DNA from: Catajapyx aquilonaris
Taxonomy: Eukaryota
Direction of reading: 5' to 3'
Assembly (NCBI GenBank): GCA_000934665.2
Contig: JYFJ02000887.1
Location: 1-64,000 of the forward strand
DNA: 64,000 nt
The translations under genes were made by a program, and so were the position numbers. The notes below the pieces were generated by a model. It was not told where the DNA came from and did no database searches. It saw nothing but the letters and a program-made list of their open reading frames with translations. Position 1 is the first letter of the stretch. Every line of letters starts with the position of its first letter. This document shows positions 6,001-12,000 of this stretch, piece after piece.

Positions 6001-9000
6001 TGGCTCTCAGAATGACCGCCTCACACTGTCCGTAATTTATTATGCACCACACTAGTATTGGGGGTGCATAGGTCGCCTGGTTTTGGGGAAAAAGAGAAAA
6101 GAAACTGGGAGGAAATAATCAGTCCTCATCTTGGGCCCATTCTCCAAGTTACTCTTTAGTGGTGCTTTATACCTCGTCATGCTGGTTAGTTGTCAGTGTA
6201 TATCCACACCGATTCCCACATCACAACAGTGATTTGAGCATCAGGTCGCTCAAAAATGAAGAGGTAAGTGAGTCTTTGTGAAAGTGACTAGTCACTTGGC
6301 GTCTGTTACGGATTTTTAAATATGCACATCTTAGATTCCACTGTACTTTGCCAGTTACATTCACCAAAGCTTGTGTGACCTTGAACACACAAAATTTCGC
6401 CTGCGGCCAGCTTGTTCCTGGCCCACACTAAAGTTCACACAGGCTGATGTGGCCTTCTATCAAATCCAGTTTGAGACCCCTGCTCTAGGATGAAATATCA
6501 ACATACAGCTTGAAAATACCTACAGGTAAAAACAGCCAAAAAAATGCACATAAGTGCCTTTGGCATATCGATGATGTTAGTGCTCCATCACGAATTTTTC
6601 TCTCCTGAAAAGTGCTCCACGACTCAAAAAGTTTGGGAACCTCTGATCTTGGCTATGTTATATGTCTCTTATTATATGCCATTTTAATGCAATAGTAAAA
6701 TGCGATTTTGCGGCCGAAGTTTTGGTACACATGAGTGGATTTGCTTGATATTTTTCTTCAGCTACCTACCCACTACCCTCACTACTTGCTACCTACCAGG
6801 GCACTCATAACTAATATGTGATTCTGTTTGAAGTGTTTTTTTTGTGATGAGAGGAAATATCAATCAGGATATCACAGATAAGCTACTTCATGTAGCCTTG
6901 GCTATTTCGCCCGTTCCAGAAAAGTTAGGAAAGTGCAACTTCATTTCTTCATTATCATCTAAGAATTTGACTTGAGCATGTGATAATAACAAGTGTTTTC
7001 ATTTCATATGTAATGTTTTTGATTTTTCCAGAGATGATAACTGAAGAACAGAAGGATAAATATGCCCACCTGAACATAGTGGGCTTGGTGGGCTCCATTG
7101 ACAATGACTTCTGTGGGACAGATATGACTATTGGTACAGATTCTGCCCTCCATCGCATCATTGAGGCTGTGGATGCCATTGTCTCCACTGCCTACTCACA
7201 CCAACGCACATTTATTATGGAGGTCATGGGGAGGCATTGCGGGTAAGATAAGTAACATAATCACACAACTTGGTATAGTTATTTGGGGATGATTTGGCAC
7301 TGCAATTGTGTGGAAGGGAATTCTTTTCCAATCCAGTCGCACCACATGATATTAGTTTATCTTTTTTCATTTGGCACAATCACTTTCAAGTGTACTATAC
7401 AGTACATACATCGACGATATTCTTCAGATGTTTTTGTTTGCTTTGGGACTTTTTTTCCTGTCTGCAACATTAGGAGGCTCCTGTAAAAACCCTTCTGCAT
7501 TTGAAGACTGCATGCACTTTGAGTATGCATGTATTTTTCCCCCAGTTCTACAGAGAACTTGAGCACCATGATGACCTCCCTTTATGCCACAGCGACTCTC
7601 GAATATTCCTCAAAATAGGTATGTTTCTTGTGGCAAATCCAAAACATTGACCCTCTCCCCTGTCCTATTTCAGGTTAGTTTATTATTTCATGGAACATTG
7701 TGACTGTGATGGTTGTGATGTGCACAAGTTTCTTTGAGGTTGGAAGGTTTTCTCTGCCAATTGACATTATTGTTGGTCCCATAGGTCTTCCAAAATAAAT
7801 ACAGCTCATTATTTATTGACTGCATCATAGAGTAATGGTTTCATGATACTGCCACTGTTTTTCATATGGAACAAGGAAAATACCATCCCATATTGGTGAA
7901 TATTTGAGGGTCGTAGTGGCATAAAGAAAGATCATCACTGTGCTCAAACTTGCTGTTACACAAGGCACTGAAAAGGTGGCGGTGAAAGACATGGCTCCCA
8001 TACCATACTTACTGCTGTCAGTGTTGTGACACAGCATGTAACAAGGGGCATTTTCTGATTTGATATTTCAATTGCTGAAGTTGTGTTTGAGTTGAATGTA
8101 GATATTTTTGAAAAAAATATATTGCTGGAGAAATAGAGAATGTCTATTCACCTGCACAAATGCAGGCCAACTCATCAAGAATTAACTCTATAGATAATGT
8201 TGAAAGGAAGGTGGTCAACAGACGAAATGGGTAGTATTGGGTGTTATTGGTTCCCTTTTTATGTGCGAGCAGGTATTTGGCGCTGGTGTCGGGGTTGATG
8301 GGGGAAGCAGATTTCATTTTCATCCCTGAATCCCCCCCTGGTAAGGACTGGCCGGAGAAGCTCTGCAAGAAGCTCAGCCAGGCAAGGCTCACACCATCTG
8401 CACAAAATTTCTGCTGAGATGCAATGTTCCAGCTTTTCACTTCATTCTAATCACTGCTTGTGTCACCTGTCCTGTAGCTAGGCCTCTAGGGTGTAGGTTG
8501 GGTGGCTTCTCAGATAGTAATGGTAGAGCATGGTAGGGGTCAGAAGTAAGCCCTGGCCCTTTTTTGCATTCTTGCCGCAGGTACTTGGCCCTCACTGCTG
8601 CAATGTCCACAGAGGCAGACTATTGTTTCATTCCTGAACACCCACACCCTCATGAGTGGCCAGAGATCATGTGCCAGAAGCTTGATGAGGCAAGGGGGTG
8701 TTGTGTGAAATGTGTGTGTTCCTGGTGTTGAGTGTTGTATTTATTATGGTGTTTGTGTGTACCTTATGGGTGAATAGTGTTGTCAGGATGGGGAACTAGG
8801 TGTCTGGCTGGCATGGAAAATGATTGTGTTGGCAAGTGTGACATTTTATGTGGATCAATTTTGAATACTTTGTGAAATATTTGCCCTTGCATTTCAGGTG
8901 TGCTAAATGGCTGTATCTTGCCACAGCGTTCAGGAAGGGTTTTTGTTGTTCAATCCAGTTGCACCATTTACGATGTAGCCTGACTTCATGTTTGTTATTG

Positions 9001-12000
9001 TTATTAATTGGTGAGATTCATTGTTACTAGTAATTAATAAGTAGAAACACACAGGGTAGAGGGTGTACCTTCACTGGAGCAACTGGGCCTTAGGGATTGC
9101 AGCTCTTTCTTCATATGAACCGAGCAGTCAAAAGTAACTTAACATTCTTGAACCATTGATGGTTCCAAGCTAAAAATAAAAACCAAGATAGTTGAAAATG
9201 GTAATTTGATTAGTGCAAATGGGTTTAAGTGTCTGTAGTTGGGCAGATGGAGGTTGTAACTTATGTGCACATTTGCATAGCTGGCCATTCCCTCTTTCCA
9301 TCTCTAATGTTGTCAATATTTTGCATGTGGATGTGATATCTTCATATCTTTCCTACCTTCCTTCACTCACTCACCCGATTCCTTTCCTTTCCTGTAGTTA
9401 CCTCTGCCTAATGGCTGCAATTGCCAGTGAGGCTGACTGTGCCTTCTTTCCTGAATCTCCCCCACTGCCTGGCTGGGAAGAGAAACTCTGCAAAGTGCTC
9501 CAGAAGGCAAGCTTGCCATGCACTTTTTAATTGTGTTTTGCCATGCCATGTGTCAGCCTCGCTTAACAGCTTTGCCACATTTGACATATAAATTGGTTTA
9601 ACTTTTAATTTGCCTACCTGCAGGAACGCAAGACTGGCCAGAGACTGAACATCATAATTGTGGCAGAGGGAGCTATAGACCGGGAAGGAGAGCCCATCAC
9701 TGCAGAGAGAGTGAGGCAGGTAGTAGTGGACAACCTGAAGCAGGACACACGTATCACTGTGCTGGGTCACGTCCAGAGAGGAGGCAGTGCATCAGCATTC
9801 GACAGAGTCCTTGTAAGTTTTTCAAGAGTGGTTTTTCAATGCTAAACTCTCCTGAGAGTTATGAAGCATAAATGTTATGACCAATAATTGAGGGCAAATG
9901 ATGTACAGGGATCGACAGGGATACTCTTGAGGATATGAATGTAGAACTTGGTATCATTTGTCATGTTCACTAGGGTGTGGCCAAGCCAGAATGGCAATAG
10001 ATTGCTACTTCTTTACCCAGTCCTGAAAAGGATCCTTTCTTAAGATATGAGCCAGCATATATTAATTGCAACCAAATAACTTTTGTCTGTATTAAAGTCA
10101 ACCCTTCTTCTCAGTGTGCATCTTCATATATTTTGCCAGGGTTGCCGCATGGGTGCAGAGGCTGTGCTGGCACTCATGGAAGCCACACCAGACACAGAGG
10201 CATGTGTTGTGTCTCTGGATGGCAACCAGGCAGTGAGGGTACCTTTGATGGCATGTGTGGAGAAGACTCAAGAGGTAGCCAAAGCTATGGCTGAGAAGAA
10301 GTGGGATCTGGCTGTGGAGCTCAGAGGAAGGTGGGTTATCTTAGGTAGAGGTTAAGCTCTACTGCTATATGCTGTATTTAATGATTAATTGAATTGCATC
10401 ATTCAGAGCACTGAGATTGCTTGCAGAAAAGTTCACATTTCCTTGCAAACTGTTATCTAGTGTGCTGGTAATTGTGTACACTGTACTCCTGATTATCTGG
10501 GTGACGATTATTGGTTCATAGCCTACAAATAAAATTAAAAATAAAAGTCCGAAAAAATGTCGTTATGTTGCAAACAAGGAAACATAACGGACTGTTTCTA
10601 TAAGACAAACTAAGAATCTATGGAAAGTTTTATTTTTTAATTTAAACCTTATTTTAAGCAGGATAAACTATGTACAATAGTACATTAAAAACCTGTGAAT
10701 AGCTCACTTTTATGGTATCTAGGACCATTTTAGGATTATCCATGTTTTCTGATTATTATCCGGTGACACCCGTACATTCATTAGCCGGGATAATCGAGAG
10801 TACAGTGTACTTATGGGAATGGCTTTTTGAAGACTCTCCTAATTTGTACTTATTGTGCTACTGATGCTAATTTTTTCAGGAGCTTCTCTCGTAATTTGGA
10901 AACATTCAAAATGCTGACCCGCCTCAAACCTCCCAAGCTTTCTACAGAAGAAGTTGACAGGGCATCAGTGAGTTCACAAATCTTTTGTTTGCACTTGTTC
11001 ATTGCTAATAATCTAACATTGGCCCTTTTTTTACATTGTTGATTTGATTTGTGATGCATTAACAACTGACAACAGAAAGTTTCAAGGGTGAGTTTAAATT
11101 GCATACTAATACTCTTGGTGATGGTGATGTTTATGGTACTGCCTGTAACATGCTTGATTAATGTTTTTTCCATTTGAGTTTTAGAGCACATAGCCTAAAA
11201 TAAGGTGATGCTTCTCACTACTACGCATTTCATTTGCCTAGTAGCAAGTAACACATGCTTGCTTAAATTCCATCCCCATTTCATCATTTCCATTTGCCAA
11301 ATTTTTTCCTTTTATGTGATCAGAGTGATGCACTTTATTTATGCATATTATCATGCATGATGTTGTAAAGTCATTGTAATGCATGTTAAGAATTTGGCTT
11401 AGGATAAATTAAAGGAAAAATATTAATTAATTACAAGTACACACATTACAAGTGGACACTGGTCCACTAATAGTTATGCAAAAAAGTAATTGTAACTTGG
11501 CAATTATGAAGCAGGGCATTAAGCATTTTTAAAAAGTCGATTGTGTTGTATGTGGGTGCACACCTTCAAGGGACACTCCACTCAAAATACAAGTTGAATT
11601 CTAAAAATCGGGCAAAAAATCCTGATTCCGAGGGTATAAGCAGTTTTCCTGAGAGACGAACGGTAAGGCCACGGCGAGCCGTCAAAGTTCGGAAATTCGA
11701 ATCTGGCGCAAAAGAGCTGCCCGCCCGGGCCAGTCCGCTCCCTCCGCGCGCGCCGCCAATCGGGACCTGGCAGAAAATGCCTGACATCTCAGCCGTCTTT
11801 GGTCCACGCCATATTTGGGCCGCACGGGTGTCGGGCCGTGGGTTTGCGCCAATTTTGAAGGGGGTTTCCGTGGGCGGCATGCTACCTATTACCCTGGACA
11901 GTAAATCTGCTCACCACAGCACTGTGACTTTACGGGCCAGGGCTGGGCCAGGGTTTAGACTGTGTCCTGACTGTTTATGAAAGGCCCACATATGTGGGCC

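Follow-up and report, generated by a model that had tools for sequence, protein, structure and literature searches.

Three putative mutually exclusive exons in the phosphofructokinase gene of Catajapyx aquilonaris and their counterparts in other arthropods

Glycolysis is controlled mainly at phosphofructokinase (PFK). The closest described system is the Pfk gene of Drosophila melanogaster, which is entered as "Pfk (3)" among the clusters of three or more mutually exclusive exons (MXEs) in the available excerpt of PMC6071210. A literature search for functional studies of arthropod PFK splice isoforms returned none, and its sole mention of such isoforms was this entry, the supplements of the paper lying outside the search; the available excerpt of PMC6396890, which paraphrases Currie & Sullivan 1994, did not mention alternative exons. 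Here a stretch of 64,000 nucleotides (nt) from Catajapyx aquilonaris (contig JYFJ02000887.1, positions 1 to 64,000; "the window", 64 kb) was analyzed, in which a PFK gene carries three homologous exons, 4a, 4b and 4c, between constitutive exons 3 and 5. Based on copy number, reading frame, conservation and annotated isoforms of other species, we consider it very likely that these exons are the local copy of an old, conserved three-exon mutually exclusive cluster of Pfk, which would give three subunits with likely different allosteric set-point or oligomer stability. A preliminary description made from the letters of the window had implied that the arrangement was new. This implication had to be given up, as the same cassette alternates in annotated isoforms of many Pancrustacea and the D. 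melanogaster gene stands in the excerpt of PMC6071210. The three-way cassette is a real, ancient and already annotated splicing device, to which the window adds one species, with a PFK that was absent from the protein collection searched (best match 81%).

Anatomy of the gene and of its variable exons

The three variable exons and the two constitutive exons that flank them are located in the window as follows.

7032..7242, plus strand: constitutive upstream exon 3, ending ...MGRHCG, the final Gly codon being split (GG/), with GT donor GTAAGA
8273..8381, plus strand: variable exon 4a, 109 nt, 72.9 bits against a hidden Markov model (HMM) of the cassette, the most conserved copy
8581..8689, plus strand: variable exon 4b, 109 nt, 64.9 bits, with a histidine-rich loop HPHPH at 233-237
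9398..9506, plus strand: variable exon 4c, 109 nt, 47.3 bits, the most divergent copy
9624..9812, plus strand: constitutive downstream exon 5, phase 0, with a GT donor (GTAAGT)

Each of 4a, 4b and 4c encoded an open 36-residue peptide in the phase of exon 3. All three peptides began with YL and had EAD, F.PE.P, W and C..L in common, while their pairwise identity was 16-19 of 36 residues and 59-66 of 109 bases. The acceptors of all three consisted of a pyrimidine-rich tract ending in AG, and the tract of 4c was the best of the three. When exon 3 was joined to exon 5 through any single copy, no stop was met; joining them with zero, two or three copies gave 3-12 stops. The HMM, built from 147 distinct arthropod segments, was run on all six-frame open reading frame (ORF) pieces of the window and matched the three copies with E values from 2e-21 to 2e-13. 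The next-best match was the paralogous region of the C-terminal half of the same enzyme at 10.3 bits, and the remainder scored at most 7 bits. No fourth cassette copy was found by this search of the window, and the three strong matches therefore set the number of copies in it at exactly three. The preliminary description had proposed three homologous exons of one length and phase, a motif shared by all, a frame broken by inclusion of zero, two or three copies, and a mutually exclusive tandem array in a phosphofructokinase gene; each of these proposals was borne out. These results confirmed, at the level of the sequence, that the cluster has the make-up of mutually exclusive exons derived by tandem duplication, in which single inclusion alone would keep the frame.

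The place of the cassette in the protein was established by alignment. By alignment, exon 3 ended at residue 213 in human PFKM and PFKL, at 174 in the PFK chains of Bacillus and at 175 in those of E. coli. Exon 4a aligned without gaps to human PFKM 214-249, and the cassette directly follows the MGR substrate motif. At the positions of PFKM H242 and R246 the three copies had K/K (4a), I/K (4b) and K/V (4c). The mapping to PFKM 214-249, the neighbourhood of the MGR motif and the residues at H242/R246 had all been given in the preliminary description, and the alignment agreed with them exactly.

The gene around the cluster was delimited from several searches. Both PFK halves were covered by a colinear series of exons when the PFKs of Limulus and Homarus were compared with the window by tblastn. 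Exon 3 matched human PFKP, PFKL and PFKM in a PDB sequence search (E ~1e-41), and an exon of the C-terminal half matched 120 arthropod PFKs carrying PF00365 in a protein search. These matches identify it as a eukaryotic 6-phosphofructokinase gene, ATP-dependent, with two domains and of the arthropod type. Its exon boundaries are approximate except for exons 3, 4a-c and 5.

3001..14838, plus strand: coding span of the two-domain ATP-dependent 6-phosphofructokinase gene, from colinear tblastn, the ORF list and the PDB sequence search
3001-3240, 4083-~4280, 7032-7242, 9624-9812, ~10140-10331, ~10878-10949, ~13125-13733, ~14039-14449 and ~14707-14838, plus strand: constitutive exons of the gene, approximate

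The cassette across arthropods and the constraint on its copies

The 120 arthropod PFKs retrieved with the C-half exon were up to 81% identical over the matched part, and none came from the same or a close species; the closest full-length PFK was ~81% identical over seven constitutive exons. MGRHCG was present in 119 of them, and the 36 residues that followed fell into recurring types. The cassette was therefore comparable between species as the 36 residues between MGRHCG and ER..GQRLNII, with the same limits in Drosophila, Musca, Culex, Zootermopsis, Plodia, Homarus and Daphnia. Three variants were found among the annotated isoforms of Plodia interpunctella (X1, X2, X3), and likewise three per species in Musca domestica, M. 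vetustissima, M. autumnalis and Zootermopsis nevadensis, in Culex quinquefasciatus (X1-X3) and C. pipiens pallens (X1-X3), in Drosophila yakuba (X1, X2, X5), D. ananassae (J, I, D), D. guanche (X2-X4) and D. madeirensis, and in Condylostylus (X1-X3). Isoform C of D. melanogaster (P0287) carried one of the three Drosophila variants at residues 216-251. Two variants were found in Homarus, Daphnia pulex, Daphnia pulicaria, Ischnura and Anabrus, as well as in Frankliniella, Thrips, Daktulosphaira, Pieris, Pararge and Chilo. Several non-RefSeq models (P0007, P0017, P0055, P0077, P0086, P0103) contained two copies in a row, and these read-through models indicate that the copies lie in tandem in the genomes of Lepidoptera and of a stick insect. 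Of the chelicerates sampled, horseshoe crabs (four of four proteins), Varroa (three of three isoforms) and spiders (9 of 11 proteins, two lacking the motif) showed a single variant. This is weak evidence that the cluster may have arisen within Pancrustacea, the chelicerate reading having taken in members of single clusters only.

Two further searches returned no counterpart. A word search of proteins with 40 residues around 4a gave no match, and no genomic MXE array was present among 80 metagenome loci retrieved with a termite peptide spanning exons 3-4-5. All 80 loci had a single N-half cassette, mostly on intron-less, transcript-like contigs, and where a second match occurred (17 of 80) it was the C-half paralogue each time.

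Other variation was observed in the same proteins. Many insect PFKs came in pairs of 788 and 799 residues (P0023/P0024, P0027/P0029, P0046/P0048 and others), and the PFKs of Drosophila and Homarus had long N-terminal extensions (950-1030 residues). The pairs and the extensions together point to further alternative exons in the gene family besides the cassette.

The relationship of the copies was analyzed with a segment tree over 36 columns, in which 4a-4c were combined with 59 segments of other species (62 in all). Exon 4a grouped with the dipteran and termite "AGL...IFIPE...LSQ" type with weak support (90/0). The nearest type to 4b was the hemipteran "PPP...KLEQ" type and the nearest to 4c was the "NW" type, both at just 22 of 36 residues. 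The best match of 4a in another species was 28 of 36 (Musca domestica isoform X1), and each copy was nearer to a segment of another species than to its neighbours (28, 22 and 22 against 16-19 of 36).

Selection on the three copies was evaluated from invariant columns and substitution patterns. Six columns were invariant in 75 distinct arthropod segments (L215, F229, E232, P234, W239 and C244), and all six were kept in 4a-4c, as were the near-invariant Y214, E224, A225, D226 and L247. Between 4a and either 4b or 4c the proportion of differing synonymous sites (pS) was 0.77-0.84, which is saturated, and that of nonsynonymous sites (pN) was 0.33-0.35. Between 4b and 4c the synonymous distance (dS) was ~0.96 and the nonsynonymous distance (dN) 0.47. 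As this pair falls short of the saturation seen against 4a, the split of 4b and 4c is suggested to be the younger one. Codons for the residues shared within a pair differed at 9 of 18, 10 of 19 and 5 of 16 positions. Since the invariant residues are kept while synonymous sites are saturated, 4a, 4b and 4c all look functional, with some doubt over 4c. Selective maintenance of three copies fits the six conserved columns and a pN well under pS.

The doubt over 4c bears on an alternative that we hold to be quite improbable, namely that one copy (most likely 4a) or two are still spliced and that the rest are decaying relics open by chance. Exon 4c has the lowest profile score (47.3 bits), its terminal branch in the segment tree amounts to 4.27 changes per column, and it carries C216, F230, V246 and K249 at positions nearly fixed elsewhere. 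Exon 4b was flagged as atypical in composition in the tree analysis, and its HPHPH loop is unique, with three His in the loop 233-238, whereas none of the 147 arthropod segments has two or more there. However, both copies keep their length, frame, polypyrimidine-AG acceptor, AG/GCAAG donor and the six invariant residues despite 40-45% nucleotide divergence, and pN stays at ~0.35 while pS reaches 0.54-0.84. In 4c, the copy most open to suspicion, the polypyrimidine tract is better than in 4a or 4b, and three variants are the usual number in several insect orders. The maintenance of all three exons as used, alternative coding segments probably accounts better for this pattern.

Donor sites and the possible basis of exclusivity

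A feature absent from the preliminary description was the kind of donor at the variable exons. All three carried a GC donor, and the flanking constitutive exons carried GT (a slash marks the exon end).

8382..8383, plus strand: GC donor of exon 4a, context CAG/GCAAGG
8690..8691, plus strand: GC donor of exon 4b, context GAG/GCAAGG
9507..9508, plus strand: GC donor of exon 4c, context AAG/GCAAGC

No in-frame GT donor was found near the end of exon 4a. The GC has outlasted saturating divergence even though one C-to-T substitution would restore the canonical site, and its retention therefore suggests selection for a weak, regulable donor. In read-through models of Papilio, Bombyx, Timema and Culex, the "KLEQ" exon was followed by Ala and then Arg or Ser (GCN AGN), which gives indirect support for GC donors in other arthropods. 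After the "NW" exon, two mosquito models had Val and then Arg (GTN).

Two side observations concern the donors. A consensus-like GT donor, G/GTAAGG, lies inside exon 4a at 8340-8345; its use would shorten the exon to 68 nt and shift the frame, and it is a potential cryptic or decoy donor. Two genomic-looking metagenome contigs, L013 and L018, each had one cassette of the "PEWPPE" type. Exons 3-5 ran without intron in L013, and in L018 the frame ran on with Val (GTN) past the cassette, which corresponds to a GT donor, so that the PFK cassette family does not use GC donors throughout.

Taken as a splicing device, the cluster would work as follows. Each messenger would take exactly one of 4a, 4b and 4c between exons 3 and 5, and out-of-frame products would be removed by nonsense-mediated decay. 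The weak GC donors, set in an otherwise perfect AG/GCAAG, probably make exon use depend on regulatory factors, and the use of isoforms would depend on tissue or stage. Steric exclusion as the basis of exclusivity was considered and set aside as unlikely, because the introns between the copies measure 199 nt (4a-4b) and 708 nt (4b-4c).

Competing RNA structures have been hypothesised for MXE clusters in general, as stated in the available excerpt of PMC6071210, and the exclusivity of this cluster could likewise be secured mainly by competing base-pairing, with a single docking site and a selector for each exon as in Dscam, 14-3-3 zeta or Mhc, rather than by frame and decay alone. Some intron elements would suit such pairing. 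A 24-nt direct repeat occurs at 7321-7344 and 8943-8966 (83% identical), the second copy of which can pair with 9060-9086, and the last intron has a GCCATGCCA element (9537-9548) whose complement lies at 8809-8820. Nevertheless, none of the six intron-intron duplex energies was better than that of dinucleotide shuffles (z from -1.4 to +1.0), 12-nt matches at 92% turn up often in 2.5 kb, and the metagenome scan gave no related genomic array in which intron elements could be compared. We regard this mechanism as unlikely, and exclusivity by frame and decay, with regulated donors, is retained as the more probable basis.

Two repeats in these introns were noted in their own right. The above direct repeat, which reads ..CAATCCAGT(C/T)GCACCA.. 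in intron 3 and in the 4b-4c intron, is a candidate selector or docking element that is not significant alone. Upstream of 4a, intron 3 also contains an inverted repeat at 7550-7619 and 7887-7956 (70 nt, 76% complementary, 267 nt between the arms), which could be a foldback insertion, an insertion like a miniature inverted-repeat transposable element (MITE), or a structure shortening the effective intron.

Possible function and comparison with known systems

With one exon taken at a time, the gene would yield three PFK subunits differing solely in the 36 residues after the MGR fructose-6-phosphate (F6P) motif. By homology with bacterial PFK, these residues are predicted to form a helix, a strand, a loop and a second helix. 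A difference in allosteric behaviour among the isoforms is plausible because the cassette spans the position that, as we assume, aligns with bacterial Glu187. According to the available excerpt of PMC11345425, site 3 of PFKL is the counterpart of the bacterial effector site for phosphoenolpyruvate (PEP) and ADP, and ATP in this site is inhibitory and coupled to the F6P-binding arginines. The cassette would thus hold one wall of the ancestral effector site, corresponding to the inhibitory ATP "site 3" of human PFKL.

The distribution of differences among the copies leaves room for another function. The putative pocket residues E224, A225, D226, F229, P231 and E232 were identical in 4a-4c. Differences among the copies were concentrated at residues 218-223 (first helix), 233-238 (loop) and 240-249 (last helix), which are possibly at the surface or at an interface. 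It is possible, if doubtful, that all exons are used and that the cassette tunes tetramer or filament stability, thermal or pH stability, or the binding of a cytoskeletal or other partner, instead of small-molecule allostery. An unchanged pocket in the three copies would suit this, as would the three histidines in the loop of 4b. On the other hand, the cassette follows the MGR motif and borders the ancestral effector site, so that an allosteric effect is the more economical explanation, and the two are not mutually exclusive. Both fit within three subunits that likely differ in allosteric set-point or oligomer stability.

A more far-reaching view is tentative. An ancient pancrustacean exon choice might re-tune the ancestral effector site of PFK (the ATP "site 3"), one gene covering the regulatory range of three vertebrate paralogues. 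In this scheme 4b and 4c would perhaps stem from a younger duplication, 4b with its HPHPH loop would be a candidate pH- or metal-sensitive isoform, and the weak GC donors would offer a handle for tissue-specific factors.

Several points weigh against an old three-exon cluster with allosterically distinct products. The placement of D226 of the EAD motif at effector-site Glu187 is putative and follows from the end of exon 3 in the bacterial chains together with bacterial numbering. The use of each copy and strict exclusivity in Catajapyx were inferred from frame and conservation. The one-to-one match of 4b and 4c to insect exon types depends on 36 columns, with 33 of 58 inner branches unresolved in the tree, and neither copy exceeds 22 of 36 residues to any of the 147 segments. 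The long branch of 4c and its changes at near-fixed sites may reflect relaxed constraint on one copy. Finally, H242 and R246 were not mentioned in PMC11345425 or PMC10586780, and a wider literature search for their role gave nothing.

As to the use of such a device, a gene-count table in PMC9933520 shows a single copy of Pfk for four insects and two copies for the pea aphid. With one Pfk gene in most arthropods sampled, a conserved three-way exon swap beside the substrate motif and the ancestral effector site is the obvious route to tissue-specific enzymes, and it could serve enzymes of flight muscle, fat body or gut.

Elsewhere in the window, a tandem repeat lies upstream of the PFK gene at 304-523 (119-nt unit, 1.9 copies, 95% identity). 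On the minus strand, a 504-residue ORF at 32227-33738 is rich in Ser, Gly, Thr and Pro and contains two LxxLL-like motifs. It had no Pfam match and may resemble a nuclear-receptor coactivator exon. No match was obtained when Pfam was run on 12 long ORFs elsewhere in the window.

Compared with known systems, the cluster of Catajapyx is closest to the D. melanogaster Pfk cluster, which it resembles in gene family, in the 36-residue cassette (216-251 of the 788-residue fly protein) and in a copy number of three. Exon 4a is identical to the Musca "AGL...IFIPE" variant at 28 of 36 residues. Exons 4b and 4c could not be assigned one to one to the fly exon types, and the HPHPH loop is unique to 4b. 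Vertebrates likewise have three PFK forms with a common catalytic core (PFKM, PFKL and PFKP), in which the cassette is PFKM 214-249; those forms, however, come from three genes and differ over the whole protein, and here 36 residues are swapped in one gene. GC-AG introns occur in regulated splicing, for example in let-2 of C. elegans. Such introns share with the present exons a weak GC donor at alternative exons in an otherwise strong consensus, but in the present cluster the weak donor is common to all three exons. Exons 9 and 10 of PKM1/PKM2 are likewise mutually exclusive exons in a regulated glycolytic enzyme, in a segment bearing on allosteric activation (10.1101/292813, available excerpt). 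That enzyme is a different one, with two exons instead of three, and the effect was shown by experiment, while in PFK it is inferred. Human PFKP also has an MXE pair (PFKP-203 versus PFKP-205), described in the same excerpt as a possible regulatory switch (10.1101/292813). Like the exons of Catajapyx it lies in a PFK gene; unlike them it maps to the regulatory C-terminal half, close to residue 539 and to the effector site for sugar bisphosphates, and not to 214-249, and the two are independent duplications.

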